In this document: positions 16,801 through 57,600 of the stretch, one piece after another
How the letters are laid out: each line of letters opens with the position of its first letter
Numbering within the stretch: the first letter of the stretch is position 1
Source: Marsupella aquatica
Lineage: Eukaryota; Plantae; Marchantiophyta
Assembly (NCBI GenBank): GCA_973895155.1
Contig: OZ316894.1
Location: forward strand, 11,277,892-11,341,891
Direction: 5' to 3'
Length of the DNA stretch: 64,000 bases
Made by a program: the position numbers and the translations under genes
Notes under the pieces: generated by a model
What the model saw: the letters and a program-made list of their open reading frames with translations, nothing else
Told to the model about the DNA's origin: nothing
Database searches by the model: none

Positions 16801-16831
16801 TCTCTCGTCGCGTGCACCACCGCATGCATGA

Positions 16832-29297: not shown

Positions 29298-29301
29298 AAG
29301 G

Positions 29302-29518: not shown

Positions 29519-30096
29519 TTGTCTATTTAATTATTATAGGGTTGAATACAAAAAAGATTGACACGCACCAGGGTGCGTGACCTACAATCATAGTAAGTAC
29601 CACCCTTTAATTAGTTAGTTTCTTTACAACAATTAATAGGATTGTTGTATATTACAATGTCTACTCGACATTCATTTGAATGTCAATAATATCATGCCTT
29701 AATATCACCAAACTAAGGCCCCACTAACTAATATTATATCTTAAATAAACTAACCAACTAACTAACTTGTCTATTTAATTACTATAGGGTTGAATACAAA
29801 AAAGATTGACACGCACCAGGGTGCGTGACCTACAATCATAGTATCACCCTTTAATTAGTTAGTTTCTATTGCTTTGACTCAATCAGGCATGGAACCATAT
29901 AAAATCAGAAATCATTGAAAGTTGAGTTCACTTGAAGGTGTAACTATAATTATTATTTATTAATAGGATTGTTGTATATTACAATGTCTACTCGACATTC
30001 ATGTGAATGTCAATAATATCATGCCTTAATATCACCAAACTAAGGCCCCACTAACTAATATTATATCTTAAATAAACTAACCAACTAACTAACTTA
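29519..30096. repeat. Subterminal duplicated blocks (A-B-A-x-B) with palindrome variant ACGCACCAGGGTGCGT
   Basis: Block A at ~29519 and ~29767; block B at ~29633 and ~29959. Confidence 0.85.
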
Positions 30097-30189
30097 GACA
30101 ATAAGACTTGCCTAAACTTGAGTTCTCTGGCTACTACTATTTTGAGTTGCCTTTTAAACTGTATGCTAAACTACATGCTTCATTACTGT

Positions 30190-33100
30190 CTAGGATTTGT
30201 CACTTGCTATGCATGTCAAGAGATAGTCTATTGCCTTGGCAGCAACATTCTTTGGAATTCCTACCAGCCCTGTCACTGGTCCTTTGCGTGCTTTGAAACA
30301 CCACAAGGCAGAGGAAACATCTATTGTCTCAGCTTCCTTGTATATTGGAGCTGGATCACGTTCCTATTCTTATCCCAAGAATCTACCCACCGCTCTCTTG
30401 GCTGCCAGTCTGATTGACCACGTTGCTTCTTTGCCATAAATGGTCTAAACCACTCAACGCCACATACATGAGTAAGAAGGTTTTGTTCATTCACTGGTCC
30501 TTCTACCACATCTGTAACAACTAACCCCATATGGATGGGATAAACATCCAGGTCTGAGTCGTCCGGCCGTACCAACACATAACAGCCCTTCACAACATCA
30601 ACCCTAGGGTTAAAACTCTCAGGAGGTTTATCTTTTGCTGGTCCCACATAATCCACTGTTGCCTCCAACTCACATGCCACATTTTGATATTCTGGTGGAA
30701 CGTGCTCTCTCCATATTGATAAAGGCCAAAACCCGTATTCCAAGTGGTGTGCACCTTCAGGTTCATATTGCACCTGCTCACCCTGTAGAGTATCTACAAT
30801 GTCATTCCAATAATTTATGAGAGTTGTCCAACGTCGCTTTGGTTCTTCCTCTTTTGTTCGCTTTAGAATAAACTCAAAGAATGACACATGCTTCTTCAAC
30901 CCTGTCAGCACTTCAGGAAGCATTTTCAACTCCATCATTGGTAGCCGTTTGGGCACCCCAATTGGGATGTGAGGACTTTTGTCATCTTTCCATGACCACA
31001 TTTCAATACCTTCCTTGGGTAACCATCCCTGATCAGTTGATTTCATTTTGTATTGGAAGCATGGCATACTATCATGACAAACATAGAACCTAAACAGCCT
31101 AGGTTTTAAATGCCCCACCAATGCCTCAGGGCCCTTCAACATGAATGGAGCTAAGTAGTTTTTGAAATCTGGGACCTCCTATAGAAAATGTGGGACTGCA
31201 TTGGGTGTCCTTGCTCTCATGAACAAGGACATTAACTCAGGCAATGAGTATGTGGGGTTATGCATCATAGACTCTGAAAAATGCTCGAACATACCGTCAA
31301 TGTCCTCATGAGTATGCCCAACCACCATAAAACCAAGATGAACCTCTTCAAACACCTCCCTTGCCGTCAACAATGACAAATAAGCCATCATATATATGTT
31401 CTTGTTGTTTGAGGCACAATTATCCAGTTGTAGCTTCAATACTCGTGGAAGGGGCCTGAACTTTGGTGCCTCAGGTGCTGCATCACAATGTAACAATCTC
31501 AGAATGCTTTAAAATAAAACCCTAGTCAGACCCTAAACCCCAATTTAGGGTTTAGGGTTTAAACCCTATTAATGAAACCTTGGCTAAGAGGAGCAACAAC
31601 TACACAAAGTAGAGTGTCAGTGTGTGTGAGCTTATATTATTAAATAATTATAAATTAAAGGATTGTGAGTAAAGTACCTACGCTTGAGATGTAGGCAATG
31701 TCATCCTCAAATGCTCTAAGGACACTTGCCTCCAAGATATCTTTCTCCCAAAAAGGAGGTCTTTAAAAAGACTTGTCAAGTCTGGCCCCTCCACAAGTGA
31801 TTTGATCATTGGATTTGGGTTTTCCAACATCCTTAGTATTGAATCAATTGACCCAATAGTGATGTTGACATCACCTGGCCACACTCCAACATGATATTGG
31901 GCTATGGCCTTGGGACCATGACCATGAGTAAGGATACCAGTGACAGTGACGATAATTGAGAACTTTTGGACACCATCCACATGCTTAGGATTGAAGGGCA
32001 TTCTTGGGAGAGCTGTCTTTGAATGATCCATCTTATCATGAATAAGGCATAACACTTCCTTTGGATGATGGATGGACTCATATCTCCAGGTATGATAGCA
32101 CATTCTTTGCTGTGTGTGGTCTTGGTGATGTTCCTCCTCATCACGCCTTAGGCCCTCTAACTCTTCCTTAGCTCCTGTAAGGTTTGCTTTCCGTTGAAGC
32201 AACTCACTACAAGTTGTACATTTTGAAAAGTTGTTGCCCTTTTTGTGACGCGAGAACTCCCTGAAATACATCTGATGTAGATGACTCAAGGTGGGTTGGG
32301 AAATTGGAGGAAGACCAGCCTCCTTATTGACAACATTAACCCTATTTCTAATATTCTCCCAAGTAAGATTTGTTGGCAATTCCCTCAAAACCATCCTTGT
32401 ATTATCTGCCATGGTTCTCAACTTGGCTGGATGATGATCAGCTGCCTCCTCAATAATCTCTTTCATTGACATGAACGCTTGAGATACTTTCTCGGACATA
32501 CGCCTTTTTCCAGCATTACCATGGGTACCTATGTTCATTTTAGCCATCACAGTCTTCTTCAAGGCATAAAATTGAGTCTTTCCTCTTGAATGAATGATTC
32601 TCCATGCCTCCAAGCACAATACTTTGCCCTCCACTGCTAGAATCCTTTCTCCAGTACCCAAGTGTATTGTATTTTTAATAGCCTTGATTTCCTCCTCCTT
32701 GCGCTCCGCAAAATATTTTGACCACCACTTTTGCCTAATTGCCATAGCCAAGTTGCGGTCCAAATATTGGCAACAATGTTCACTACAACAGTCCTTAGAT
32801 GTGTCTCTTCTGGATGTCTAGGAAGATGGACTCTTTCTTTTCCTACTTTTATGGACGTAGGACCGCTTGCCACTTGTTGGAGATGTGTTCCCTCCCACAG
32901 CTTGCCTGATGTTGTGGAAAGACAACAAGTTGCCATCCTTGGCAATGAGTTGGTCCATCGACCAAGCTTTTAAGCAATCTCTATGCTTCAGATGATCTAT
33001 GATAGCTCCCTCGACAAAATCGTTGATCAGAATTCCCACATGTGTATTCCCAAGGGTGACATCCCCAAGCTTCACTATAGGATCTAGAACATGTATAGTT

Positions 33101-33550
33101 GCCACTGCAAAAATCAACTTGTTCTCATCCACCACCTTTACAGGCATGCCCATCCACAAGGCCTTTGGTAAAACTACTTCCACACCAGACCGACTCTCAT
33201 TATGGTTGTTCCCATCAGAATTTTGATTGACTGGATCTTGATCATCACCAACATTGCCAAACACATCCTCCGATTCCATGGGAGCTCGAAAAAGCTTATT
33301 CCTTTCCCATACAAGGTAACCCCCAATCATGTCCTTCAAAAGTTTGCCATCTTCGCATAGAATGGTCTTGTAAAAAACTTCCTCCAATAGAAGAAGACCT
33401 CTGTCCGCCCCAAGAGGAACATTCTGATAAACCCTGGAAGGATCAAGACTTATCACGCGACCTTTTCCAACCTGTTTCTCACGTATGCCTATAATAACTT
33501 GTCCGTCTTTCCTGATCCAGATTGTCAATGTCACCATAATAATTATGATC
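30190..33550 (-). pseudogene. Sola-like DDD transposase, two exons, disrupted
   Basis: ORFs 32818-33558 and 31678-32763 share a frame across one TAG. Intron 31677-31478 (GT..AG). ORFs 31179-31496 and 30321-31142 share a frame across one TAG. Motifs: CC..HCC, VLCLEAWRIIH, FSKCTTC..H, LIHDKMD, LQLDNCASNNKN, FMVVGHTHEDIDGMF. Frameshifts near 31750 and 30365. Confidence 0.8.
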
Positions 33551-33582
33551 CTGCACATCAGAGAATATCATTGTAAGCGTAC

Positions 33583-34243
33583 AGTCCTGTCACGTCCGTC
33601 AACTTCACTGCATTATCCCTAAACTGCACGCGATTGGTCGCGTGACCCTAGAGGTACCACACATACCGGCAACAGACTATGCATGGTCCGTCAATCATTT
33701 CAAGTGAATGAGAACGACCACAATCGATTACGATCAATCATTTCACATCCACTCAGAACAAATGAGTGGACAATACCAGTTTACCAATGAGTGGACACTG
33801 GACAGTCAGTAACTACCGAGGACTATAATTCTAATAAGCGCCAGTAAAAAATCCGTGAATTGCATTGTCCTGTCACGACCATCAACAAGTAAGCAGAATG
33901 TAGTCAATGCACTGCCCTGCACGCGACTAGTCGCGTGACCTTAGTCAGAGGGTGTAGGGATAATAGGGTCTACAAAGTAGAAGCTAGAAGCCTAGGCCCA
34001 AACTCTAGCTCGTACTTGGTACTTCATAAGTAAGATACGATTGCGCATGAGACAGTAAGATACAATTATGGATCTGAAGGCATCACACATACCGGTAACA
34101 GATTATGCATGGTCCGCCAGTCATTTCAAGTGAATGAGAATGACTACAATCAATTACGAACAATCATTTCAACTCCACTCAGAAAAAATAAGTGGACAAT
34201 ACCAGTTGACCAATGAGTGGACACCGGACAGTCAGTAACTACT
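33583..34243. repeat. Duplicated block upstream of the transposase, each copy with the 16-bp palindrome
   Basis: ctgcacgcga..gtcgcgtgacc at 33628 and 33921; cacacataccgg..ggacagtcagtaactac at ~33658 and ~34084. Confidence 0.85.
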
Positions 34244-34560
34244 GACCCTCATAAGCAATCTCAGTACTTCATTAGCAATCAGTATTCCCGGGGTGGTTGC
34301 CAAACGTGAAATTAAAGCCATAATTAGAGGACAACTGAACTTCCCACCAATTCTAATACGCGCCAGTCAAACGCGCACTCTCTTCTAGAAACCACTATGT
34401 ACAATGACTAGTGGAGACTAAACAGTATAAAGCATTGAGATGATCCCTACTACTCATTCCCCCACGCATTCCACTTTCTGGCTATTGGATAATCTATTCG
34501 CACATCAACTCTCTCATTTCCAATTCTTAGTCTCGGTCTGAATCTCTTGTTTGAAGGGCG

Positions 34561-35105
34561 ATGACTACTCCGCTGAGCTCAAAGAATGAGGATGTTCCGA
34601 CGGACGATTCAGAAGATTCGACATATCAAATTCGTGGTACTCCTTACAGAATGTGTCAGCGATGGAATATAATGTTTACGGTGACTAAATCGGGTCAAAT
34701 GTTTTGTGAGAGACGACATTGTTCGCCACATTTGTCGATGGAAGATCAGATGGAGAGCAATCCGACATAGATGACTACAAAGATGGCATCAGGGGAGAAG
34801 TTAAAGGGCAAAGCCCTCGTCAAATCCGTTTTGGGGGGGGGGAGAAGTTGAAGGCCAAAGCATGCGCTGAATCCATTTCGGGGGAAGCAGCAGCAGACGC
34901 TAAGACAGTCAAGAAGGAGGCCAAGAAAGTGGACGCACCGAAGAAAAGGCAATTAGAGATGAACAAAGATTCTGATTTGTATTACAAAAAGAGCAAGCCA
35001 AGAAAATCTATGGACGTTAGGACTTGGGCAAAGGAAGAATTCCTGGATTCAAGGGAATCCACACCAAACACCGATGACTGGATGCCTTCATCTTGGAATG
35101 ACTGA
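34561..35105 (+). pseudogene. Small frameshifted cargo ORF of unknown function (Cys-containing N-half, Lys-rich C-half)
   Basis: Overlapping ORFs 34561-34770 and 34719-35105 look like one gene with a frameshift; TATAAA at ~34426. Confidence 0.4.
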
Positions 35106-35349
35106 CTCGATCGAAGTCTACAATATTTTGAGTAGTCAAAGATTAGAACTACAGATTCAAGAGTAGTTCAAGTTAGAACTTGTTATAGATACTGTGTAGC
35201 TTAATTTTGTCCCGTGGAAAATAGTGTTCGAAAGACCAGGTCAGTTAAATTCCTGGATAGTGCTAGTGGATATGGATTCCACATCCGAAGTCCTTCAGGA
35301 TCGATGTAACCATTTTTGCAATCAAGGAAAAATCATCCACAAGATTCCT

Positions 35350-36395
35350 CTGACCTCTAAAACATTAACGCGACCGGGCGTGTGATGAAACAAAGACGTT
35401 GGTTTTAAAATAGATTTCTGGCCAATTTGCTAGGCTGTCGACTCCAATAAACAATATCAAAAAGACCTGAGATAAATTGGTTCACGTGACTATACACGTG
35501 ATGAACTACATGTGTAACCGAAAAAACAGGTCATCCAACTAACAAGTTGAGATCAGTCAGATCTGAGAAATAAAGCACGATTACGTTTAAGAGTGTAGAG
35601 CTTTTGCTGACCTCTAAAACATTAACGCGACCGGGCGCGTGATGACACGAAGACTTTGGTTTTAGAATAGATTGCTGGCCAATTCGCTAGGCTGTCGACT
35701 ACAATAAACAATATCAAAAGACACGAGATAAATTGGTTCACGCGATTGTGCGCGTGATGAACTACATGTGTAACCAAAAAATCAGGTCATCCTACTAACA
35801 AGTTGAGATCAGGCAGATCTGAGAAACAAAGGGCAATTATGTCTAAGAGTGCAGAGCTTTCGCTGACCTCTAAAACATTAACGCGACCGGGCGCGTGATG
35901 AAACAAAGATCTCAGTTTTAAAATAGATTTATGGCCAATTCGCTAGGCTGTCGACTACAATAAATAATATCAAAAGACACGAGATAAATTGGTTCACGCG
36001 ACTGTGAGCGTGATGAACTACATGTGTAACTGAAAAATCAGGTCATCCTACTAACAACTTGAGATCAAGCAGATCTGAGAAATAAAGGGCGATTACGTCT
36101 AAGAGTGCAGAGCTTTCACTAACCTCTAAAACATTAACGCGACCGGGCGCGTGATGATACGAAGACTTTGGTTTTAGAATAGATTTTTGGCCAATTCGCT
36201 AGGCTGTCGACTTCAATAAACAATATCAAAAAACCTGAGATATATTGGTTCACGCGACTGTGCGCGTGATGAACTACATGTGTAACCAAAAAATCAGGTC
36301 ATCCTACTAACAAGTTGAGATCAATTTGATCTAAGAAATGGCCCTCGATTACGTTTCGTTTCGCTAGGCCGTCGACTACAATAAACAATACCAAA
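35350..36395. repeat. Tandem array of four ~256-bp units, two palindromes per unit
   Basis: ctgacctctaaaacattaacgcgaccgggcg starts at ~35350, 35607, 35863 and 36119. Confidence 0.95.
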
Positions 36396-38954
36396 ATGTA
36401 CGGACAACTATAATTGAGCGCCATACAATTTTAGACTAGAGAATTCATTCGGATCCTCTACTAGTACTTCTGATACATTGCTTCTGTATTGGACTTGAAA
36501 CACGGATTGATCAAAATCGGAGTGAGAAATTGGACCATAACTTCATTGACTCAATTCATGCATTGAATGCGTGATTTAAGGCAACTACTCTCCTCATTTA
36601 TTGCAGAATTAATGCTTATTGATACTTACAAGTTATTCAGTTGCGTGTGGTCTCAGCGATGTTGGCGGCAACCCTCCTCCCAGCCAAGCCTCTTCCTTCC
36701 AGCGTAGCCTCTTCCTTCCAGCGTAGCCTCCTCCTTGTCCTAGCCAACTAAGCCTCCTCCTTCGAACTCCAATTTCCTTGAGTATTGTGACCGAATCCCA
36801 CCACCAGAGAATGACAACTTGTTGATCGTATCGAGATCAAAATCCTCGACCAGACAGTGATTTCAGAATAGCCTCTCTTTGTTGGTCCGCTAGAATGTTT
36901 CGATGAATGAGGCAGACTATGGAGGTTCTAAATCTTTATCGTCTCGCTTCGTCGCAACTCTCTTTCGCTTGATCGGATGTGCCCTCCCCAAGAAGGTGAT
37001 ACAACAAGAACTGCGCCAGCGTTGCTTGAATGAGCTTCGCCTCCGACTGGAATAGTTGAATGATCCAATCTGCTCCACCTCAAATGTGCCTTGGATCAGC
37101 CTCCGCTGAGAGCCTAGCTAGTATCCTGGTCAGGAGAAACTGAAAATGAAGAATGATCCGTGAGCAATGAGATCAGTCTATTGACTCCATGAAGGATGTG
37201 TTCATCTGGAATCAATTTTGATTTTGAAAATTGGTTGAGTCTCCAGTCGTGAGAATCATTGTACAGGATTGATTTTGAATATCGGTTCTCCTCGACCGTG
37301 AGAATCATTTTACGTTGTTTAGAGTTTGGGTTTGAATTGGCAAGATAGAGAATGGAGTACGGATCCGGATCCGACAGTCTCCACTACCAAAATGGAATGA
37401 TTTTGAAGTTTGCCTCACTCCGATCGTGAGAAAGTTGTCATTCGTTCACATTTTGGATTTGAATTGGCAGATATAGTGAAGATACGGATCCGGATCCGGG
37501 GGTCCCCACTAACAATCTTTTGCAGTTGCATAATTACCGGTTTAAATTTCAAATTGGCGATCAAATAGAAATCTCCTTTAGTACGGCAAATCAAAAGGAT
37601 TTTGGTAATCTTTTCTTCACGATTGCATAGTTTGTTGAGTCAATGGTGGAGTGTACAAAGATCATCTGGAACCTTCTTGTCGCTAGGCTGTTATTAGGGT
37701 TATGCTAAAATGATATCCTAATTAGTCCTTCCTTAGTGTCGGTGCCCACGGTCTCAAGTTCACTGTTCATTGTTGTTGTTTCTCGCTCCCTAGACTTTTG
37801 TGCGCCTACTCTCGTTGCTCTCGCTCTCGCTCTTGCTCCTGCCCTAGATTTCATTTTTGTCTTGTAGCTTGTTCGTTGTGGTCAGGTGCTTGTCGGCGCA
37901 TTGCAGCTCTTAGCAGTTGTCGATTGTTTCGGTCAGGAGCTCGTTGGTGTGTTGCAGCTTGCATTTACAGCTCGTATTCACTTCTAGTTTGCTCAAAGGG
38001 ATTCTTAGGAGCTCAATGGGTTTGTTGCAGCTAGTTTTTGGGAGTGCTTGTATCAGCTCGTGTTAGCCAATTTTAAGCTCATATCAGCTTGATCAACGTG
38101 TTTCAGCAGCTCGAACTACTTTTTGGCAGCTTGTTTTAGCTCCTTTCATTCATCATTCAGGTTTGTTTAAGCTCTTTCAATCTTCAAGTTTAGTGCACTT
38201 TTATTCATGCTCACTTTGTCTATTGACATCTTTGATTGTACTTCTGGAAGAGTCTTATTAACTCGACATAATGAGTTCCTTAGCATTAAGCACATGTTAT
38301 TCAATTGGCAGCAGCGAAGCTCTATGTATAGAAGTATAGAAGCTGTGTTGTTGTTGCTTAGCATATTAATATCTTCAATCTTATATTTACTTTTTGGAAT
38401 GCCGCAGCAAGGTCTTCAAGTGCTTGGACGTCAATCTCTCAGACGATTACATCAATTTTTCAGAATTCAGGTGCAATTTCTACATTATCTGCTGGTGTTG
38501 ATTGTTGTTTGCTAAAATTTCTCTTGATTGTTAAGCTGAGTTTTCATAATGCAGTTTGTCTGTAAACTCAAATATGTCTGAATCATACAAACTCACTAAT
38601 TAAAATACAACCTGAATCGTCTTAAGTAAGTCATTACAAACCTGCACGCTGTGAATTTAATCATATAAACTCTCATGTTATGTTACACTGAATCCTTTAA
38701 TTGACAAATACAACCAGTAGACTGCTAAATTGAATCATCTTAGCTGAATCATTCTCTAAATTGAATTCCTTGCAATATGAAAACTTCTGATATATAATAG
38801 TTTCACAATGAAAGAGCTCAAACATCTGAATTATTGTAAAGTTCATGAATAAATACAAATGAATGAAATCATGCTTACTCGGATTTCCCTGTTCGTAGGG
38901 GTCAGTAATCACAGTTGTATCACTGTATTATCCTAGTGTCCAAAAGTTATTTGA

Positions 38955-39702
38955 GCTGTTGATGCGACCAGTCGCATGAGAAGATTGTGAGGTTCCATTT
39001 AGGATCAGTTGACGCGACCAGTCGCGTCTGAGGTAGCTCTCTCATTGACTGGTTCTGTTAGAGGAGGTAAGGTTCCATTTAGTTTAGTTGACGCGACCAG
39101 TCGCGTGTGAGAAGGAAACAGGATAGATTACTGAGCGCGTACCATATCCAAATCTCCAAAAGGAAGGTTCAGTGGATATAGTTGTTTAGGTTCAGTTGAC
39201 GCGCTCAGTCGCGTCTGAGGTAGCTCTCTCATTGAATGGTTTTGTTAGAGGAGGTAACGTTCCATTTAGGATCAGTTGACGCGACCAGTCGCGTCTGAGG
39301 TAGCTCTCTCATTGACTGGTTCTGTTAGAGGAGGTAAGGTTCCATTTGGGATCAATTGACGCGACCAGTCGCATGTGAGAAGGAAATAGGATAGATTATT
39401 GAGCGCGTACCATATCCAAATCTCCACAAGGAAGGTTCAGTGGATATAGTTGTTCATGTTCAGTTGATGCAACCAGTCGCGTCTGACATAGATCTCTCAT
39501 TGACTGGTTCTGTTAGAGAAGGTAACCTTCCATTTAGGATCAGTTGACGTGACCAGTCGTGTCTGAGGTAGCTCTCATTGACTGGTTCTGTTAGAGGATG
39601 AAGCAACATTAATGATTTGTCACGTTGTGACCTAAAAAAATCACAATCTTCCAAAGAATTGTTTAATATACATTCTGATTTGTAGACGCGACCAGTTGCG
39701 TG
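38955..39702. repeat. Array of ~80/~108-bp subunits, each led by GTTGACGCGACCAGTCGCGT
   Basis: Nine motif copies at 38962, 39012, 39091, 39199, 39279, 39359, 39467, 39547 and 39686. Confidence 0.92.
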
Positions 39703-39742
39703 AAAATCATCCCTGGGATGTATCATTTGGCTGAAAAGAGTC

Positions 39743-40296
39743 ATGGGGGAACCTAGTCTGGAGAGCTTCAGATATCTATGCCCAATATTTGACGTTTTGG
39801 ACAGAAGCCAAGATGGTCTACTGGCGGGATATTCTGTAATTGTTGAAACACTACTACCTGGACTTCCAGATTTGATTGTCGCGGAATTGATATGGCCTCG
39901 GATCAAGGAGTCATTGAATTCCTTGGTTAATGCATGAAATTTCTCAATAAAGGAATTGGATGAGTTTGTAGGACTATCTTCAATGTGCCGCAGATGGCGC
40001 CACCTTGTTGGGAATACCTATCTTTTGGGTGTAATCAAGTTGAGTTTATTAGATTTGGCTTTCCCAGGAAATCCTACTAAACCGATTCAAAATGAGTCTC
40101 TCTCATCGACAGTTCAAAGTTTCTTCTAGAAATACCCAAGAATTAAATTCATGGGGTCAATGTCCAGAGATCTTAGGGAACTCTTCACGAAGACTTACGA
40201 TGCTCTTCACCCTCTTGAAAAATGGAAATTTACAGTTAGATGCCACGAAGTTGGATACCTTGAGGGTGACATCTACGCTTTTAAGGAATGCTAGTT
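39743..40296 (+). pseudogene. F-box-like module 1 (disrupted)
   Basis: LLPGLPDLIVAELIWP..(*)..LSSMCRRWRHLV. Confidence 0.65.
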
Positions 40297-40359
40297 AACT
40301 TACGCGACCGGGCACGTTGTATGTCTTCTAACAATGTTTTGTGATATGATAAAAGCAGG

Positions 40360-40887
40360 ATGAGCCAACTTTTGAATGAGGCTCGAGATTTCCTTTCATC
40401 TCATGAAAGGAAACAGAAAACAATATGGGATACGCTGGATGAAACCTCCTCTAGTCTCATTGGAGGAATACCAGATGTTTTGGTCATTTCAAACATTTGG
40501 CCAATACTCTACAAACACTTTATTTCAATTGAAGGATTGCGTCGATATCGACACCCCGATAACAATTTGGTTATCGATAGGATCCGAGACCTTATTCGGC
40601 TTGGAGCTTGTAGCAAGAAGTGGAACTTTTTAGTTACAAATACAAGGTTATGGGCTATCCTCAAACGAGCAAACCGGATTGTCAATGACACAAATGAAGC
40701 ACTTTACTACATACCCAAAACTGATGAGTTGGAGTTTGACTCAATCTGTCGAGTTATTCAAGAGGATATTTCTATGTTCCCAGAAATATCTGTTCTTGGG
40801 ACTACTACTTCTGACAAAATCGTATTGTTTACGAACAAATATAACTATTTAGATGCTCAAGGAAGAACGAGATGTTCTAATCGAAAG
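40360..40887 (+). CDS. F-box-like module 2 (exon)
   Basis: LIGGIPDVLVISNIWP..LGACSKKWNFLV..RLW; phase-0 donor at 40888. Confidence 0.65.
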
Positions 40888-40973
40888 GTTTGGTAGATTT
40901 TCTCAGAATCTAGGTGGTCCCAATTCTTAATGGATAGGTTCTTGTTCTTAATCTTTTCCATATTATGTTGCAG

Positions 40974-41491
40974 TCCTTTGACATGAATCAAAAATCTCAT
41001 CGTCAAATGATGATGAAGCGCATTGCACGTGCAAAGGTTATGAACCAAAACATGATATGGAGTCAAGCTGAAAACCTGATACCCGGTCTTCCAAACGATG
41101 TTGTCGAGAAATATATTTGGCCATTAGTCAAAGAGTTTTTCCACTCTCGTGAGAATTTGTCAGATAATGCGATTAAAAATCGGGTCATGGACTTGATCGC
41201 CATTCAAACAGTCAATAAGAAGTGGTGCCACATAGTTACTTATAGTAGTACTTGGGCGACGGTCACCTTGGTAGCTTACGACTTCACTGATAGACTAGGA
41301 TATGAATCGCTTCGAAGGAATTTGACTTCACGGAGTGTAGCATTCAAATTTACAGAATCCATCATAACTCTCCCGCCGCTGGACATTCTGAGTGGATTTG
41401 AAGGATCTGAACTTGACACGTTTAGGAACCTTTGGTTTTTGTTAGATGAAGATGAGCAAAAGGATTGGGTCAGGATAAACGTTCCTAAAAT
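40974..41491 (+). CDS. F-box-like module 3 (exon)
   Basis: LIPGLPNDVVEKYIWP..IQTVNKKWCHIV..TW; acceptor AG ends at 40973. Confidence 0.7.
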
Positions 41492-41569
41492 GTAATTTGG
41501 CACGACACGACCATGCGCGTGTTAGTATTTTATAATAAATGTTTAACTTTCATATTTGTCTATTTCAGA

Positions 41570-44500
41570 ATGGATCCTACCGGAACTTCAAAGCGGAAAA
41601 GAGACTCGTCTAAAGCTACTTCTCAAAAGAAAGCCAAGACAAAAATGACTCCCGCGGAGACATTCATACTTGCATATCGAGGAAAGTCAATCAGAGAGAG
41701 AACAACGGAGACAAAGAGTATCCATCTCTTTGATTCGACTGAGATATTCGATCTTGGAATAGTCGTTCGCAATGGGGCTGTCCGTCTTGTGGTGGCAAAA
41801 AATGATAAAGCTACAGTTTTGGAGAGGTCGCAAATTTTTGGGTGTTTCTTTGAGAAGAACATGAAAGTTAAAGAGTGTACAGAGGGCTTGGTTATGCTAG
41901 TCAACGACGACCAGCAGGAGGACAAAATAAGCATTTGTTTGGATCGAACGCAATATGTAACCTTCAATCAGCCCAGAATCAATGATCTTCTAGGTGCAAG
42001 GCACGCCTTGGAAAAGGTTACTAGTATGGAATATCCTTCCAATCCAGAGGGATCAACGGGAGATTTGATTTGTCAATACATTATTGACGTACTTGAGTTT
42101 CAGAGAGTTAGTTTCAACCAGGGATTTTGCTTGGGAAAGGCCCCCCCAGTTACCAAGGTTGAAATATACTCGGTGGAGAATCTTCCGAAAGTAATTACCT
42201 CAACAAATGTCGGGGCTCTGTTCGATTCTTTCCTCAAAGAATATAGTGTTGTGAATATATTTAACAGCAAGTCATTTTTTGTTGAGACATCACGTTGTCA
42301 TCTTGCACCGGACCACATCAAGTGCCGAGAGTGGAATCAGGATTTACACAAATAGGCTAAAGAATTCACTCCTCTCTCATTCGGCTATAAAGTTTAAAAA
42401 GCGATGTTGCTTTTTAGTCCCTGTGAAGTGGGTTCAGTCGGAGGCCGACAGAGATCCCGACTACAATGGGACACCCTACGATTTGGCGCTAACAGAGGAG
42501 GACATTATGACCAGTCATTTTTGGATACTCGGAGGCCAGCACACAATAATGGCGTACAAATTGCTGAAAAAGGATGACAAAGTCAGCCAAGTTGTACGAG
42601 ACGCATGCGGTACTGTAGAAGCTGTAATGTTTTGGGCAACGCTCAACAACAACAATAATGTTCATTTGATGGGACTATCGAAGGCTCTGAACCACTATCA
42701 TCAAACATCAATCGAAGGACAGTTTCTCACCATTGTACGACAATGTCGTAATATCTGAACTCATTTGGGCGGCCTGGATCACATTATCATCATCCAAATT
42801 GGAAGGTATATAAATAACCTTCTTCGATCACATTATCGTTTAAAATTTTGTTACGCAAACCGGCGCGTCAATCTTAGAATTTTTCTCACGCAAACGGTCA
42901 CATCAATCTTAGAATTGTCATGTTTCCATTGTTTTTCAGGTATTTATGAGAGCTACAAGTTTTGTTTGCCCATGGGCTCAAATGGGGAAGAACGCAATAA
43001 TGAAATTTGGAGAATTGGCTCCATTTCTCTTTACAATGGAGGACAAAACATTCAAGAAGTGGATGGAGGTCTACAAACTATCAAGGACAAGAGAGCTTGT
43101 AATTTACAACGGAATTTTATAGAGGGACGCCGTCAAAATTGTGGATAATCCCTGTGCTTATCATCTTCTGAAGAAGACGTTCCGTTCTTGTCAAGGATGC
43201 TCGGACTCGGTTCTTTGAAAGGCAGCGGAATATATGTTGAGCGGAAGACTGTCTATACTCAAAAACCAAAGCATCAAAGTGAAATCTGGGGGCTCTGTTG
43301 TTGTCAACGACCAGCATGAGTTTGGAGCAATTCTGTATAAAGAAGAAGACAAAAGTTGAGTTTGAGATTTTATTATTGAGTAAACTCAACGGGGACACAT
43401 CCACCCGGACGGAGCTGCAAATTCTGACAGATTCAGTGCGGAAATTGCGGGTCAAAGGAATGATTGATCGCTTTAAGCTTGACAAGATGGTGCTGAAGCA
43501 GTTGAGAGATGCGTTGAGTGGTTATCTGAAGAAGTGCTTAAATGTAAATATTAGTAATGATAATTTGTTGAAAGAGATCGACCCGATATTCCACAGGTTG
43601 GTGGAAGGAATACAGAAATTAGTTGAGAGTCAAGGAAACCAACTAGTGCGACCGGTCGATGAGAGGCTAAAATTGCAATCCCTGTAGGATATACAAAATG
43701 TTGGGTTTGTAGACTGTATCATACGTGAAGACAAGAACCTTGCAAGCTTGATTTATTTTGATTCCTCATCAATGGGAGATTTGCGTCCGCCAAATTGCTC
43801 ATTCTATGAGGGGTTATTTTGTGTGCTACTAGCGAGATAGGGGCAAAACCACACCATGTGGTTATTATTGTAGCCTCTCTCGTTGAGTCTTATTTAATCA
43901 AATGGGATTTAGGGAAGTACACACACTACGTTGTTGTCGATAGCCATTATATTCAGAAGCGGCCGAAGGAGAAGAAGCTTATTGTAACCTACGCTTTTCA
44001 TAGCTTGGCCTTCAGCACAATGGGCGATCCACAAGCCCTCGAGTTCCAATTGGTCTCCAAATATCAGATTGAGAAGATAGCCAATTTTGAAGAGAGCGGC
44101 GAGTACACGACACCTTCCCCAGAAAAGATACTTCCATTCTTTGAAAGTATTGTTAGTCAATTCGTCCAATGTGGGGAATGGGCTATATGCTTTGGCGAGG
44201 GAACCAACTTGATCCAGTGCTTAATGGTAAGTTTTGAGATTTATATTTTGGGGTTTTAATTTTAAGATTGTTTAGATTTTTATATTCTCAATTAATATTG
44301 TGAACTAATTTCGGCTTTTTTTACAGGATGCTAGATCCAATGTAAAATATTACTGCCCTGTGGCAACGCATAGGGAGTTATCTTGTTTCTTGCAACACAC
44401 CACGGCGACAATTGATACAATGCTGTCATTAATTGACCCAATACGGGCTAGTATAGAAAAATGTATAGATAAATTAATGAAGTACCGTCCATCCGTAACT

Positions 44501-44648
44501 GCTCTCAGGGCTGATGTTTTGGATGTCCTCCACGAACAACATATCCCTGATAATATTTGTAATCAATTATTGCAAGAGAATGCCCTCTCTGAAGATTCTG
44601 ATCGATTGTACATTCGACCAACGAAGTACCCTCATGGGCCAATCCAAG
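41570..44648 (+). pseudogene. NLS + ParB/Srx-like domain + helical region + degenerate amino-MTase-like domain (exons 41570-42805, 42940-44226, 44327-44648)
   Basis: KRKR..KKAKTK; CHLAPDHIKCREWNQD..RLKNSL..FWILGGQHTIMA..LSKALN (ParB-like GxH motif); ASLIYFDSS (motif IV position); PEKILPFFESIVSQFVQCGEWAICFGEGT (motif X-I position); several stops and frameshifts. Confidence 0.55.
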
Positions 44649-44776
44649 GTAGGTTACTTTTGAACCCTCTTACTTTTTCTTGTGTCACGCGAACATGCAC
44701 GTGGACATTCTTAACATTTCTTCTCACGCGAATATGCGCGTGAGTCATTCTTATCTAATGATCTGATTTTATTCAG

Positions 44777-46372
44777 ATCAAGTTGACTGCTGCTTCAATG
44801 TTGAGGATGCAGGGAGCAATGGTGATGCGGATGGTGAGGGGGAAGGTGACGTGGAAGGTGACACGGATGGGGATGTCAATGACCAAGATCCAGAGTGGAT
44901 GACCGATATGCAGAACGACATCGGAGATTCCGACAATAGCGAGGAAGAGAGTGACGGAGAGGAGATGAAGGACGCTGAGGACGCTGATGAAGAGGACGAG
45001 GAGATGGAGGGTTCTGAGGACGCTGAGGACTCTGATGAAGAGGCCACACAGGAGCCTCGACATGAGGCGGACCGAGAGGAGGCGGCCCGGCAGGAGGAGG
45101 CCAGAGAGGAGTCGGCCTGGCAGGAGTTGGTCTGGCAGGAGGCGACCCGGCAAAAGAAGGAGGCGGCCCGGCAGGAGAAGGCCCGACAAGAGGCGTCTCG
45201 GCAAGAGGAGCTTCAAAAGAAGGAGGTGACCCAGCAAGAGGAGGCCTGGCAGGAGGCGTCCTAACAAGAGGCGGCCCAGCAAGAGGCGGCCCGGCAAGAG
45301 GCGCTTCGAAAGAAGGAGGCTAAGAAGAAAAAGGCGGCAGCTAGAAAAGCAACTGCTGCAAAGAAGAAGGAAAAAGCCAACGCTGAGAAAGCCCAAGCAA
45401 AGAAAGCCGAAGCTGAGAAAGCCGAGGCTGAGAAAGCCCATGCTGAGAAAGCCCAGGCTGAGAAAGTGGAGGCTGAGAAAGCGGAGGCTGCGAGAGTCCT
45501 TTTAGTGACAGAGGCAAATAGGGCCAAGGCGGAGAGTGTGGCGGCTGAGAGGCTGCTGGCCGAGACGATGGTGGACGAGATCAAACAGACCGCAAGACCA
45601 GAGAGGGTGGAGGCGGAGAAGTTGAAGGCGGAAAAGGTCGATTCCGCAAGACTGGAGAGAGAAGAAGCCGCAAGATTGGAGAGGGTGGAGGCGGAGAAGG
45701 TGGAGGAAGTGAGGAAGGAGGCCGAGAGGGCCAAGGATCTTTCGCTTATTCCTGAGGCACAACATCTACCAAAAATAAAGTTGAATTTGAAGAAGCCTTC
45801 TTCACCCTCAGTTGCAGTTAAGAAGAAAATATTAGATTATTTTCTTCGCCCGGAGTTTGAATTTAACGATCCACCCTTAAGTACGGTCTCATTGGATGAT
45901 TGGAATAAACATTCACCAGAGCAGCTCCAAGTCCAGGTTGTCTTGGCTTTGCAATATTGGAAGGGTCTTTTGATTACCGAGGAGAAGACTGCCACTGCAT
46001 CCAGAATGGAGACAATCATCAATAATGTCTGCTTTTCCAAAAATTGAGTGCAAGACCTGGGAACGTCTTTGGCACCAGACTCGGCTCAAGTCGTTAAGAG
46101 ACTAACAGCTGACTTGACGCGACCGGGTTCGTGGTCTCAACCCCGATATACTGCAGAGGTCACTCACGCAGAAATTGTGGCACCGGATATTTTGGAATTG
46201 GATTCCTAGCCTGTGGAATATTTAAATCAAATGCCACAACCATTCGAAGGTCTTTCCGCCTCATCGCTCCAACCTTCGCAAACTGGTCCGGTGGAGCGAT
46301 CACTGCGGTCTCGAGGAGGGCTGAAGGATGTTGTTGCAAAGGAGGCACCCAAGAGATCAGCTGCAAAAACAG
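44777..46372 (+). pseudogene. Acidic low-complexity and E/A/K/R coiled-coil exon of the cargo gene
   Basis: In phase with the upstream exon; D/E-rich tract, then (RQEEA) and (AEKAE) repeats; in-frame stops at 45262, 46045 and ~46207. Confidence 0.7.
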
Positions 46373-46373
46373 T

Positions 46374-46470
46374 CTATTTCAATTATTATATTTCCTGAAG
46401 TATCATACCAATACGCGTTTTAAAGTTTTGATTGATATTTGTGGCGTTGATCATCACTCTCAAAAATGAA
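46374..46470 (+). pseudogene. nad9: Mitochondrial nad9 fragment (NUMT)
   Basis: LFQLLYFLKYHTNTRFKVLIDICGVDH.SQK resembles plant mt Nad9 LFQLLxFLKxHTxTRxQVLIDICGVDYPSRKRR; AT-rich; out of frame with the surrounding exon. Confidence 0.85.
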
Positions 46471-46645
46471 AGGCCGGATCCACCCAATCCAAAGGTCATT
46501 CGCAAGCTATAAGCTTAAAGTTTCTATTATAGCCGTCATTATTTTATTATTGATTTGTTATTGTTTCTGTTTTCTGAGGTAGAACACTTAGGCTACAACC
46601 TCAGTACGTTATTTGAAGGCGTACTGAAATCTCTATTTTTTGCAG

Positions 46646-47434
46646 TTTTTTGGAAATTTGGCTAGTCGAATAGATCAATGCCTTGATCCTTCTAAGGATA
46701 TGGAAGAGCTATTGACCAAGTTCTTACAACACTCGATCAAGAGGAAACATATGATGTGTCTAAGACCGCGCGAGTTGCTCACCGATGATATAATTAACGC
46801 TTATTTGAGTTTTCTCGAACTGATTCTCGATAGAGTTGGAAAGTCAGACCTTGTCAAATTCTTCCAAACACACCATTTTGAGCTTCTCTCCATGGATCCT
46901 ACCATTTTTGATGAGGAGAGAACAACTTGGACAAAGGAGTTTCCGCTAAAAATCAATGAATACGACAAACTGGTCTTTCCAATACACAATGATGTGAAAG
47001 AATATTGGTCATTGGTAGTTGTGTATCCGAAGGAGAAACGGCTCGAGTACCTAGATTCTCTAGTTCATAATCGACAAAATTCTGGGGTGCTAGAAATTGT
47101 TGGGAAGTATTACGCCGACAAAATTGGCTGGAGTACTGGTGTCAACTTGGATCTCTCAGGTTGGGAACGGATATATCGGAATGATATTCCTCACCAGAGT
47201 GACAGCCACAGTTGTGGTGTGTTTATCTTGAGATACGCCAAGTGCTTGTGTCAAGGAAACAAAATTAATTTTGCCACGGATCAAATTGAGAAATTCCGTA
47301 GGGAGATAGTCTTGTCATTATTTGACATGGACTTTCGCAAGCCAACGTCCGCAAATAACCTAGTTACCGGGATCCGTGCTGCTATGATTGACATTTTTGG
47401 CGGAATTCCAGCACTGAACGACCGTCTTGTACAT
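46646..47434 (+). CDS. Ulp1/peptidase C48 SUMO-protease domain exon; catalytic His replaced by Tyr
   Basis: LRPRELLTDDIINAYL, FFQTHHF, LVFPIHND..EYWSLVVV, YLDSL, PHQSDSHSCGVFIL. Confidence 0.85.
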
Positions 47435-47520
47435 GTAATACACTTCATTTCAGTGTCTCTCTTTATAGTCACGCGACCGTTTGCGTTATAAACTTATTTT
47501 CATTTCTTAATGTTTTACAG

Positions 47521-48424
47521 AAGCCTATCCCAAAACCCCCTGATCGAGTATCAAAGGCACCAGTCTGAAAGTCCGGTGATCGTCCGGAGGCGGGAAACAA
47601 ACAGACCGTTCTAGTACGTTCTCCAAACCCCGCGACATCAAAATCACAGGTACAGATGACGCCTAATCCATCAGCAAAGAAGTCACCGGTTCAGAAGAGA
47701 CTTGTAATTTTTGATCTGAATCGGTACTTATCTGGTCAGAGAAGATCAGCCCTGGGATGCCCATTCGGTCAAGGGGTGTGAGACAGATGCACAAGGTTAT
47801 CTATCCAAGGCCTGATTTAATGGAATTTCTTGAGAAGTGGCAGATCTATACGACATTGTGATCTGGTCATGCATGTTCAAACAAAATATTCTATCTTGTG
47901 TAAGGCTGATACTTCGACCCAAAGTTTTGAAACGTATTAAATTTATATGGGGACAAGAATCAACTCGACCTATTGGGAAGAATAATAATGACATCCCCTT
48001 ATTTGTGAAATGTCTCTCCGACATTGCCACCGATATTAAAGATTACAACATCGAGAATGTCATTCTTATCAATGATGTTACATATAAGACGAGCCTTAAT
48101 AACTTCTATTCATCGCTGTATCCCGATGCATATTCTGGGCTCGATGATGACCTATTTTTTAGAAAGAAACTATATCCATATCTATGCGACATGTCAATTG
48201 ACAAGTTGACATTCCGCGAGCTCCTTAGTGGATATGGGATTCCAACGTTCTCTCAAGAAAATCTTGAGAGAGATTATATTGATAAGACGAATCTTTGGAG
48301 GAGAAATGTGATCATTCGTAATCAGGGGAATAAAGACCATTTAGAAAAGTTTGACGAATATATGAAATACTTATCTGCCAAAAAAGACCGTGCTATAGAA
48401 GCCCGGGATAAGTCCGATAAGTAA
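47521..48424 (+). pseudogene. FCP1/NIF-like HAD domain 1
   Basis: KRLVIFDLNR, YDIVIWS, KFIWGQE, PLFVKCL, ENVILINDVTYKTSLN; disrupted near 47566-47830. Confidence 0.75.
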
Positions 48425-48555
48425 ACGTTTATTGTTTATTATCAATTATTATCTATAAATTGATTGAGATTGAACTTTATATTTTGGGAGTGACGCGCCC
48501 GGTCGCGTGGTTGTTTGCAATTGCATAATATGATAATCGAATTGTTCATTTATAG

Positions 48556-49180
48556 GTGTCTAAGTGGAGTAGGTCGCGTAAACATCTAGTTTTAGGACTA
48601 GAAAACTTCAACTAGAAAGCTCTGTTTAAAAATATACTCCTCAGCTCAAGTCGACACCCGGAATTCATATCGGATCTCTATGTGTCGTTCCGAGGCCGCA
48701 TCTTCATGATCTTATAAAATTCTGTTATGATCATTTTGATGTGATGGTCTAGTCTATTATTGACGACAAACTGGTTTATCAGATACTTTCAGAAGTGTTG
48801 TCGAGCACGACCTGTTGCAACTGATATATGTGTTCACGCGGGATCATTGCTGGAATCTTGGTTATGTGAAGAAAAATTATAAGACTGTTGTCATCAAATC
48901 TATCGAGAGACTACGTGATATGTTTCAAGATTATCGACCAGAGAATATAATCCAGATTGATGCCTATCCTTCCCATACATGCCAGACAGCTGTATGCGGA
49001 TTATTGTTTGCTATGTTGTTTCAAGGATCGTTGGATGATGTCTTTTTTGGAGGGATGACCTCATTCCATATTTACGAAAGCTATCAGATTCAGGGCTTTG
49101 TCTTGCGTTCGCTAACAAGTTTGATTATCCCATCTGGTTGATTAGAAATCTACATCGAGATTGGGATCTGAATGAGGATA
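48556..49180 (+). pseudogene. FCP1/NIF-like HAD domain 2 (degenerate)
   Basis: KHLVLGLENF, RPHLHDLIKFCYDHFDVMV, YVFTRDHC, VIKSIERL, ENIIQIDAYP; frameshifts and stops. Confidence 0.65.
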
Positions 49181-49355
49181 TATGGGAGCATCTGTACGTG
49201 CAGAGACATGTGGATCAAGTTCTTATCAAGCACTTCAACAGACGTCACTTATCAATGGCCAGAGTGTAGAGGATGTTGTCTCTGTAATATGTGACGCGAC
49301 CATTCGTGTGACTACATCCATACGGGCTCATGCATCTTCTTGTGTTTCTCTACAG

Positions 49356-50045
49356 GAGATTCATTGCAGCAGAGAAAATGGGCTCATAGTTTTAGACATG
49401 GAGCATCTACTCTGTTACACTGCACCGCATTCTCGACTAATGGCGGTCTCAACTAGAATTCGGATTGAGAATATATACGTTTTTCCAAGGCCTCATCTTC
49501 ACGAATTCTTGAGATTCTGTCTTGAGAATTTCGATGTAGGGATCTGGGCCTCTCTTGGGAAGAACCTTTTAGATCAGATTTTAGCATCTATTTTTACTGC
49601 GATGGAAATGGTCTCATTTAAGTATATTTGGGATCAGTCTCATTGTTACTTATGCGATGGGGTGACATCAAATAAACAGATATTTTTGAAGTGTTTTGAG
49701 AAGGTTGGAATTTATACAAAGGCGTATTTGCAGCAAAATATAATGTTTATCGAATTCGATGCATTTCATGCTTGTTTAGATCCTGTTGTTGGATCATAAT
49801 TTCCCCCCAAATATTTTGGGTCGGTCAACGACAATTTCCTGATTAACTTGTTGATTCCGTATCTTAGCAAGCTAGCAAAATCTTGTGAGCCACTTGTCAT
49901 TCCCAATGGAAGAGATTATCCTGATTGGTCAGTTAAATCTATTTTTAGAAATTATGATTATAATCATACTCTATGGGAAGACCCTGTGATTCAGAGGCAT
50001 GGAGATAGATATCTAGTAGAGCAATTTAACAGACGCCCAATTTAG
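49356..50045 (+). pseudogene. FCP1/NIF-like HAD domain 3
   Basis: LIVLDMEHLL, FPRPHLHEFLRFCLENFDVGIWAS, FKYIWDQSHC, IFLKCFEKV; stop at 49797-49799. Confidence 0.8.
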
Positions 50046-50334
50046 GACGCTTCCGAAATAATAGTCGGCATGAGATCAGATTAATTTGTATTGTCGTTCT
50101 AGAAATGATTTGTAAACTCCTTATATACTGGTTATCATATATAAAGGATCTCAGAGATTTATTTCTCTATTGTTATTATTTGCGTGAGCATGTCTTTTGG
50201 TCCCGTCAAGTTGGATTGGTTCAAATGTGACATTGCAGTCATTTCAGGGTTTCACGCGCAGCCACACGTCATGTCGCCCCCTTTTTATTAAAATAATAAT
50301 ATTTAGTGATTTTCGGAATTTCCAAAGTTCGGTT

Positions 50335-50351
50335 TTCCTTAAATTGGGGTT
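50335..50351 (-). repeat. Right TIR, TTCCTTAAATTGGGGTT
   Basis: Exact reverse complement of 29302-29318, followed by TSD AAGG. Confidence 0.92.
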
Positions 50352-51305
50352 AAGGGGCTCCTCCGGATTTCCCACAAGCGACTCCATCCACTCCATCGTG
50401 CTATCCTCATCCGGGTTCTCTTCTATAGTGGTTTTGGCTAGAGGTTCAGACGGTGGTTCCTTTGCAAGACTCCCCAAGATGGTAGTTGCAATCCTCCGTA
50501 TTTCCATGGTGAAGGGTGGCCCTGATTCTTCAGTTTCAGGAGAGGGGAGGAGCCCTTCTGACCTGGCCAAGAGGAATGACACCATCAAGTGAACGCTTCC
50601 TCCGGACTTCAGACTTTTAGGATCCATGGCCAATGTTTTCTTCAGCCCAAAGTACCACCATCCGTAAGTGTGACTTGGGTGAGCTTTGATGTCATTGGCA
50701 CTAGCCAGTTGATCTCCACTCACCATTCCAGATTGCCCCCAGCCAAGCACCCGTTGGTGTATCTTGGCCACCAACCCCTTGAAGGCTGGTTCCTTGAATG
50801 ATGAAAGGGGAATGTTGGTCACGGAGGTGGGATCTCTGACAACCCTAGCTAGCTGCTCCAACGTAAGTATCCCCGGTGGCTCCGTTGGCTGAAAAGTGAA
50901 ATCTTGGTTGTCCAAGAACAATAGCTTGGCCAGCTCCGTATTGGGAATCAATTTTTGTGTGCAATGAAAGTATATCCCCTCCGTACGGAACTCTAATCCT
51001 GCCTCCACGTTCCAAGTCCTACCATGGGGAATCCTGATCTCTACCCGAATGAAATTGGTGAGACGTGTGGCCTGAAAAATTTCCTTGCGTTCCTCCATCA
51101 TCTTGGCAGAAGTCCGCGGGTAGACTCTTTGGAAAACCCTCCTCTCAACCGATGCGCTATGGGTACTGTATGGTCCGGTACTCATGGCTGTATGTCTCTC
51201 TTCCCCCTCTTCAGCAATTTGCGACGCAATGTAATCCCGGTAAGCGGCCTTGTATCTACGTATATGGGCCCTACTGAACTCCGGTCTTTCCAATGACGAC
51301 CTCAT
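50352..51305 (-). pseudogene. N-terminal 318 codons of the host-element ORF (accessory TE protein, family not established)
   Basis: Open frame from ATG at 51305 to the TSD; continues in frame at 29297 once the transposon is removed. Confidence 0.7.
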
Positions 51306-54670: not shown

Positions 54671-57600
54671 TACCGACCCGAATCAAACAGATGCACTGCA
54701 TGTCTCGATACCTTTGAGGATTGCTGGTATATTGAAAAAGAATCGGCTGTAAAGATTTGAACGCATTCCATCGTGGTGTATTGAAAATGAACGAGGTCGA
54801 AGGACCTGCCTACGCTTTGTCCCCTTGGCAAGGCTTCCTCTTTCCCAATTTTAAACAGGACCGACTAACTTATGTATGCTCTTCATCGACAGCGACGAAC
54901 ACCTTCACATTCGCGCCAGAGAGAGAAATAATACTGCGAAACTTTCACTCTCGACATAGGGATGATTGGATAGTTGCATGCATGGAATAAAGACGAAAGA
55001 CGGAACGACGTAGCTTGCGAAAGGACGAATCACAGAAACGATCCACGATCCCCCTGGGGGTGAACAGCTGAGATCCGCTCGAGGAGGAGTGTCTGCAATT
55101 GCACAATAATAAATATTTGATTGATTGACAAAGTTTTATGTTTAACGTGTGTCGTGGGTAGTGGGTACCATTTGCACGAACCGTGGCTAAAATAAGACCG
55201 GCACCAAAAATCTAGGGCATCCCCACATTTAATATTGTTGCTTGTGTTGGACGACGCTGTAATTAAGAATGAATTTCATTGTCTTCCTGGTCTGGATCTG
55301 GACCTGGACGACATTTCCAGCCAGCAAGAAGAGCACAGGACGATCCGACTTGGCTGTTTCCTATCATCATCCTACCTACTATACCGGCACCACCAGTCTG
55401 GACCGTATTTTGGAGATTATGATCGAGCCATTCACCAGGCAGTCGTCCTCGTAGGGAAGTAAGAATGTTCCTGCCTGACTAAAATTAGGGGTGTTTCACA
55501 GATGCTTTTGGTCGAAGCGAGAATGTTCCTGCTATCGTAGCCAGATGACCAAATCTGTTCATCCTGCTTTGCAGTACAACTTGTGGACTGCATGGATCTC
55601 ACAAAGTTCCTCAACTTCGTGCGGAGTTTTCCCGAGTGATCATAGCGTTGCACTTGACTATACCATCTGGTCACGGTATACAAGGCTTGTCCAGGTGTTG
55701 AAAATCACCTTGAGTGAAGCTGAAGATGCTAAGAAGATTCCTTATATAATTTCCCTAGACTAGTGTCTGACCCTTACATGTCCCTAGGTGTAAGGATAAA
55801 CATAAGACTCTGGCTAATGGGGTCTGTGCCTAGGAGGGAAACTAGTTGCTGGAAAGACAAAGAGCCTGCAAAGATTTTGAATACTACTCCATGAGGCCCA
55901 ATTTGGTGGATTTTGCCACTAAAACAAAAGCTGTCGATTACCTCAAATAGTATAGCTGACATCCAAATTATTGTTACGAGCACTAGCTAATTGACGAGTA
56001 ATGGTTCTAGACCAAAAGTAACGTTAACTCCTGTCCGTTCCATAGACTGAATTTCCCTGGAAAACTTGCACCTTCTGGCTGTTACAAGCTTGATATTGAG
56101 GGAGCAGGAACTGGAAGCTGGCCTCTCACGGGGTTGGAAGACCTTAAAAAGAGCAATAGCCATTTCAGGATCAAACCAAGGAGCTCTCCTGATTCGATCA
56201 GCTCCTTCGTCCTCTCAGCTCCCTCCTCACCCACTCCATCGTACGGCCACATTTTCCCAAACTCATTTTTGAAGCAAACTCCTGGAACTATTGCCTTGCC
56301 TACCATCAGTCGTCTTGAGAATAAATAATATGAGGAAAGAGCTTTGCTTAAGAATACAAATGTAACCTACTGCAGTGCTGGTAGAGTTATCTACGAAGGC
56401 CCAGTTGTGGGCCTTGACTGTGCTAAAATCTACAACTTCCTATATTCCAACAAACAAAAGCAATGAGTGGGTCTGCCATGTGGTCCTCTCTTAGGTGGGG
56501 ACACAAAAGCCTCATCATTGGCTTCCAACCATTTCCTTCTTAGTCTTTTGGGGAGGGTGTTAGACAATTATGCCTAGGTCTAGAGTGATGACAATAACCA
56601 TAGTCACAGACTTGGTTAGACTAGTTGTGTTGCATCCTATCTACCCAAGCAGTGTTTTTCTTATAGAGCAAAAACTCAGGCTCATTGTTATGGAGATAGG
56701 GGCCCAAGACTTGATATGGCCGATGGGCCTAGACTGTAGTAAATATCTCGTTTGTCGTCGTTGATGTAGACTCATTGGAGATAAAGCACATCTCTCTGTG
56801 ATGACTACTTATTTGTTAAATGGTCATATCCATGCCTTTGCTTAGTCATATCTTGCTCAACAGAGGGGGTGATGTAATGATAATCAAACCGGAGCAGCCC
56901 GTCCACAAACTGGCTGGACTACTTGGGTGCGTGGAAATCCTTAAATTTATATCCGAGACCTAAGCTATGGACTCTTTCGGGAGCGGAAATAGCGCCCACC
57001 TTCCAGCTGGACTACTTGGGTGCGTTCCAATCTACCACTAAGGAAAGGAAAACAACCTTGGAGGCTGAAATGACAAGCCAGGGAAAAAAAGAGCGGGGTC
57101 TTAAGAAGTTGCTGACAAACAATCCTTGCAAGCAGATTATGACAGCAGTGAGGAAGGACCCTGTCTAAATAGGAGGCCAAGTAAATTTGACAATGAACAT
57201 GTCAGCGACAAGCAGCACTATATTCTCCTTAGTCAATGTTAATTAATGACTTTTCAAGGAAACCAAAACGGGAAACAACCCAAGCTGGAATGCATGCAAG
57301 CTGCAAAAGACTTCAGGGCTTCCGAGACTACAATCTAGAAAGAACTATTGATCCCCTTTTGCCATGTAAATGTTTGCTAAGATGGCCTGTGGATTCTATG
57401 TAGATAAATTGTTGACAGTTGAGATATGTTGGTCACCCATCATTTCTACATGCTAGACACGGGGCTAGACAACAAGGCCAATTGCTAGGGCCCCTAAATT
57501 CTAACTTGAGCTTCTTCATGTATGAAATGCAGGCGTACTTGGGGGCAATGCTGCATTGCAACATGTTGTGTAGGTAGGTGTGTAGGTACAGTGGGAGCAG

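Follow-up and report, generated by a model that had tools for sequence, protein, structure and literature searches.

A decayed accessory gene with a predicted ParB fold and a methylase-like tail in a Sola1-like transposon of the liverwort Marsupella aquatica

We will start with Sola1-1_Ec32 of the brown alga Ectocarpus, the closest system described. It has 21,549 bp, AACCG-CGGTT ends, a 4-bp duplication and its best match in Sola1-1 of Physcomitrella; opposite to its transposase there is a gene for a protein of 1104 amino acids, ParB-like and N4C/N6A methylase (PMC12477816). Physcomitrella is listed as a carrier of Sola1 in a review of land plants (PMC9033089), and pairings of ParB with methylases are known in phage ParB-terminase loci and in some algae (PMC4738411). 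The window studied by us is a stretch of 64,000 nt from Marsupella aquatica (contig OZ316894.1, positions 11,277,892–11,341,891). Our favoured explanation, to which we give a probability of about one half, is that positions 41570–44648 of this window are the decayed accessory gene of a 21-kb Sola1-like transposon. Its product would be a nuclear scaffold with a ParB fold and a methylase-like region, likely without the activities of both, which binds the palindromes of its own element.

The element has 21,050 bp (29302–50351). It is flanked by a 4-bp target-site duplication, AAGG, in positions 29298–29301 and 50352–50355. The left terminal inverted repeat (29302–29362, plus strand) starts with AACCCC, the right one is found at 50294–50351 on the minus strand; their first 17 nt are the same and about 60 nt are imperfectly alike. 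When the element is removed in silico, a single unbroken minus-strand frame runs over the target site. Contigs from four public runs, belonging to two studies, cover all 30 bins of the region 30000–49900 in each run, with a summed depth that goes from hundreds to tens of thousands. On this basis the element is a complete DNA transposon with many copies in the four runs. It is of the cut-and-paste class, with terminal inverted repeats, a target duplication and a DDE-type transposase, the DDE residues being read by eye. We have filed it as Sola1-like from its ends (AACCC..GGGTT, compared with AACCG..CGGTT in Sola1-1_Ec32), its 4-bp AAGG duplication and its layout. CACTA, Mutator and piggyBac were rejected, as the ends and a 4-bp duplication other than TTAA do not fit the general rules of these families.

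The accessory gene lies on the plus strand; it is spliced and perhaps longer than 41570–44648. Exon 1 (41570–42805) has a basic start similar to a nuclear localization signal, a beta domain which is weakly PH-like (41675–42110, residues 30–175 of the relative P0001) and a ParB/sulfiredoxin-fold domain (42250–42715), in which GGQHT replaces GxxR. Exon 2 (42940–44226) contains a helical middle region and, from about 43730 to its end, a likely degenerate beta-class N4/N6 methylase-like domain, with moderate evidence. Exon 3 (44327–44648) is placed by its splice sites. An in-frame continuation is found at 44777–46370, with an acidic tract and a coiled coil made of 15-nt repeats; it has stops at 45262, 46045 and 46207. 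The splice phase suggests that it is joined to exon 3 as a fourth exon starting at 44777.

The motifs quoted in an earlier sequence-only reading of this region are all in place, though scattered over three reading frames. Before 44648 the window copy has four frameshifts and four stops and is itself unable to make the protein. In the contigs the breaks at 42343 and 43821 are mostly missing, and so, in three of the four runs, is that at 42756. With the high depth of the contigs, this indicates that the gene belongs to a high-copy repeat and that its copy here is dead. The commonest differences of the contigs from the window copy are A>G and T>C, which fits a decay of the latter by C-to-T change. 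A chance reading frame was rejected, since the family is conserved and has introns, and a host gene was rejected because the gene sits within the terminal repeats. The plant transposon proposed in that reading is confirmed by the ends, target duplication, contig depth and a DUF7869 transposase. That reading makes no mention of the ends of the element, the palindromes described below, the PH-like domain or the Ectocarpus precedent.

A word-index search gave one relative, P0001, among 183 candidates. In a tree P0001 is nearest to the window, but about 37 residues of the window row are there in the wrong frame and the tree is not used as evidence. A full HMMER search extended the family to 30 proteins (E up to 0.001). 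Most of them are fragments of exons, and many stop at the same Trp-Lys/Glu-Val intron point. When the 30 were looked up with their cluster members, the five that carry an organism name were all from the liverwort Calypogeia fissa. With a deeper profile, 4229 candidates yielded two long relatives, P0040 (E 5e-40) and P0041 (E 9e-40). Their N-terminus is different, and they group apart from the others with good support. Their open frames read through apparent in-frame introns, in the positions of introns 1 and 2 of the window. Neither the pieces of the accessory gene nor their relatives have a significant match in Pfam, PHROGs or NCBIfam; the best matches below significance are ParBc_2 (E 0.045) and the ParB-like phrog_1033 (E 0.13–0.21). 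Sequence searches of the PDB were blank. Pattern scans for the locus found none in viral or prokaryote genomes, while in metagenomes 33 pattern matches led to one short locus; tblastn against phages gave nothing better than E 1.

The ParB-like domain is supported by structure prediction. In a model of P0001, which is 58% identical over this domain, ParB/sulfiredoxin folds are the top match in three fold searches, so that the claim of a ParB-like domain made from the sequence holds for positions around 42250–42715. In the model this fold is preceded by the weakly PH-like domain. The arginine of the GxxR motif of Box II is absent in all 22 motif copies, which have [GD]GQ[HY][TS] instead; the equivalence with Box II comes from the strand-helix position in the P0001 model. 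As a separate observation, the Atlas features of residues 215–410 of P0001, the ParB part, are nearest to clusters of the fungal DUF3723, at 0.95. DUF3723 may be a ParB-fold protein.

The methylase-like tail is less clear. The tails of P0040 and P0041 align with motif X-I of beta-class amino-methylases (44122–44205 in the window), with a score reached by none of 153 and none of 141 shuffles, over about 35 columns; the HHalign probability is only 7%. The methylase profile was built from viral loci, of which 74 of 75 gave 64 distinct sequences, and from YhdJ; 48 of the 64 were kept, the rows dropped being near-identical and YhdJ-like. It is a modest profile, not that of Pfam. The tail piece of the window itself has no significant match with it, so the methylase proposed earlier is upheld in part, by the relatives and not by the window copy. 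A single-sequence model of the methylase-like piece has pLDDT 52 and its fold search gave noise, a homolog search with this piece retained none of 136 candidates, and Atlas had no usable match for it. Read by eye, YFDSS occupies the position of motif IV, which is outside the program-made alignment of the relatives. We consider it likely, from these alignments, that the tail descends from a beta-class N4/N6 methylase.

The catalytic motifs were said to be eroded, and this is true beyond the window. The [DSN]PP[YF] motif is absent from the tails of the window copy, P0040 and P0041. FxGxG is not kept either: the window reads CFGEGT and the relatives read VFGGTK and IFGGSK, and the acidic residue of DPF is missing. 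Since both full-length relatives lack DPPY/SPPY and FxGxG, and the ParB arginine is missing in 22 of 22 copies, the erosion is not just a result of the decay of the window copy. Judged from its motifs, this variant of the protein is probably enzyme-dead, and an inactive DNA-binding scaffold would be its role.

A candidate target is found inside the element. The 16-bp palindrome ACGCGAC-NN-GTCGCGT is CG-rich, contains four CpG and resembles parS. With up to 3 mismatches it has 26 copies in the window (33628–49309), all of them within the element, while 0.42 are expected; the pattern was derived from the same sequence in which it is counted. Some stand in two tandem arrays, the others one by one within introns, in spacers and in coding sequence; the transposase gene has none. 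One array (35342–36396) has a 256-bp unit with two palindromes, the other (38947–39702) has units of 80 and 108 bp with one palindrome each. As 17 of the 26 copies fall in these arrays, they are not independent. With up to 4 mismatches there are 39 copies in the window, 35 of them in the element, three near its ends. A local duplication close to the left end (29519–30095) has a variant palindrome, CACGCACC-NN-GGTGCGTG, twice (29563 and 29811); apart from these variants CpG is nearly absent from it (observed/expected ratio, o/e, 0.13).

The arm with the palindromes has a CpG o/e of 0.76. When the motifs are masked, the value is 0.67–0.82 in the accessory genes, 0.66 in 33568–40344, 0.30 in the transposase and as low as 0.13 in the element's first kilobase; the flanks have 0.54–0.56. 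Such a contrast is what a long-term shelter from CG methylation would leave. It should be weighed against this that a later capture or codon use could give the same contrast.

On our favoured explanation an intact protein would enter the nucleus and dimerise, and the dimer would read the palindrome as ParB reads parS. This reading would mark the element as self. Without catalysis the protein could then keep the arm unsilenced or shelter it from CG methylation by the host, in the way of VANC on VANDAL elements, or it could help to assemble the element for transposition. Binding, dimerisation and anti-silencing are suggested here by analogy with ParB/parS, the red-algal PAG3 and VANC. VANC is not known to be related to the accessory protein of the window.

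The palindromes might also have nothing to do with the ParB-fold gene. The gene would then be passive cargo, or have another job, and it would be the transposase or a host factor that uses the palindromes as its sites. The element does carry other cargo of the Ulp1, NIF and F-box-like types, palindrome variants are found near both its ends, and binding of the palindromes by the protein is a prediction. Transposase sites are usually subterminal. All 26 good palindromes are unlike that, at 1 to 17 kb from the nearest end and with none in the first 4.3 kb; a ParB gene and arrays of inverted repeats are also paired in the red-algal element. We find this explanation doubtful, although it is the best of the alternatives. 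Somewhat less probable is that the ParB half is real and the tail is not derived from a methylase, its likeness to motif X-I being a coincidence of a short helix and strand. The few aligned columns and the blank library searches speak for it. It is opposed by the shuffles, by the position of the match, which closes a domain of about 200 residues in the beta-class order, and by a protein layout like that of Ectocarpus. This alternative can be combined with the others.

The least probable, in our opinion, is that intact copies are active N4-cytosine or N6-adenine methylases with a rebuilt site, which ParB guides to the palindromes, so that the element writes its own mark. The four CpG of the palindrome would suit it, and the Asp in the motif-IV position is kept (DFRNIP, YFDSS); at motif I each of the three tails has either a Gly pair or G-x-G. 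For the Sola1-1 protein of Ectocarpus, the predicted product is 4mC or 6mA (PMC12477816). However, neither full-length relative has [DSN]PP[YF] or FxGxG in its tail; these motifs were read in three tails, none of them from intact copies of the family of the window.

The other genes of the element are as follows. The transposase gene (30321–33567, minus strand) is broken by stops and one intron-like gap; it matches Pfam DUF7869 (E 1.5e-30 on 31182–31508). It has Cys clusters, and three acidic motifs (32040, 31433 and 31319) can be read by eye as a DDE triad. Among the literature matches listed none links DUF7869 with Sola1. Contigs of runs X1, X3 and X4 have about 31 extra letters at 32797–32798, close to a stop of the window copy. 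Upstream of the transposase there is a 168-nt direct repeat (33652–33819 and 34078–34245), with a palindrome shortly before each copy. The remaining cargo is on the plus strand. A weak F-box-like frame (40345–40896) has E 0.003, under the Pfam cut-off, and a second one (40938–41495) is F-box-like by eye and without a Pfam match. A Ulp1-type protease domain (46628–47340; Peptidase_C48, E 9e-20) has by eye a Tyr in the usual position of the catalytic His. An NIF/FCP1-like phosphatase remnant was recognised by eye (47700–48424), with no Pfam match on 47834–48421; a second NIF-like domain (49383–50045) has E 5e-11 with Pfam NIF.

The frame interrupted by the element (50352–51305, minus strand) resumes at 29297 downwards and has a coiled coil at its end; its right-hand part has no Pfam match. 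Its setting is retroelement-like. An 80-nt direct repeat (28703–28782 and 61091–61170), 89% alike and beginning with TGTTG in both copies, resembles the starts of two long terminal repeats which flank the element. A 38-nt inverted pair (28959–28996 and 56595–56632), 79% complementary, probably represents more retroelement pieces. Frame fragments at 62016–63302 look by eye like a Mutator/SWIM-type transposase, with no significant Pfam match. In positions 1–29300 no frame of at least 105 residues has a Pfam match past its cut-off and no host gene was recognised; this part has a CT microsatellite (16830–16885) and several families of short tandem repeats.

For testing there are now the exact limits of the element, a 16-bp candidate target, relatives that are intact and, as an internal contrast, the CpG of the arm against that of the transposase gene. 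If the protein binds and protects, plants would have a second, independent anti-silencing system, which might also serve as a sequence-specific tool for the epigenome; otherwise the gene is ordinary cargo of a transposon, prokaryotic in origin. An unlikely generalisation is that a bacterial, enzyme-dead ParB-fold module, unrelated to VANC, is common to the giant transposons found in land plants, algae and fungi (Sola1, Plavaka and, by way of DUF3723, Starships), where it would read parS-like palindromes of its own element and shield the element from host CG methylation. None of the literature matches listed describes a ParB-methylase transposon gene in land plants; subscription journals, Repbase and bioRxiv supplements (Bostrychia Table 6) are outside this scope and may describe one.

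Finally we compare the locus with known systems. The bacterial counterparts are the chromosomal and plasmid ParB-CTPases (Caulobacter 7bm8, Myxococcus 7bnr, PadC 6ryk, Bacillus 6sdk, KorB 8qa8), compared alongside the prokaryotic fusions of ParB with N6N4-methyltransferases. They have the same fold as that predicted here; the strand-helix motif in the Box II position and a 16-bp palindrome within the element are further likenesses. They differ from the window protein, in which the GxxR arginine is Thr/Ser, a long insert precedes Box II, ParA is missing and the gene is spliced and eukaryotic. VANC of the Arabidopsis VANDAL elements, our working likeness, is likewise the accessory product of a transposon, and the short motifs that it targets stand in tandem repeats within that element, but VANDAL is Mutator-like, and demethylation, shown for VANC, is proposed here by analogy (PMC5735166). 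DUF3723 of the fungal Starships, the best Atlas feature match of the ParB part, is like our gene conserved cargo of giant mobile elements; the likeness comes from features alone, without alignment or E-value, and the source ties DUF3723 to TIGR02168, not to ParB (10.1101/2021.12.13.472469). Our literature search gave no report containing both DUF3723 and ParB.

The Plavaka accessory genes PAG2/PAG3 of the red alga Bostrychia are likewise carried by a giant DNA transposon, in which a ParB-like gene adjoins tandem inverted repeats and self-binding has been proposed; they differ by belonging to the EnSpm superfamily, by the fusion of ParB to a 2OG oxygenase and by an N6 methylase on a separate SET fusion (10.1101/2025.02.11.637652). 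Sola1-1_Ec32 belongs to a brown alga and not to a land plant, and has a terminal repeat of 282 bp instead of about 60. In our element the methylase motifs are unrecognisable and there is extra PH-like, Ulp1, NIF and F-box-like cargo; the part of the Ectocarpus description quoted here mentions no palindrome array, and its protein is likened to ours by description only. The two elements agree in a length of about 21 kb, AACC..GGTT ends, a 4-bp duplication, imperfect terminal repeats, an accessory gene that runs against the transposase and the order of ParB followed by a methylase-like region. The ParB-methylase accessory gene known from brown-algal Sola1 is extended to land plants, in an element nearly equal in size, ends and layout.
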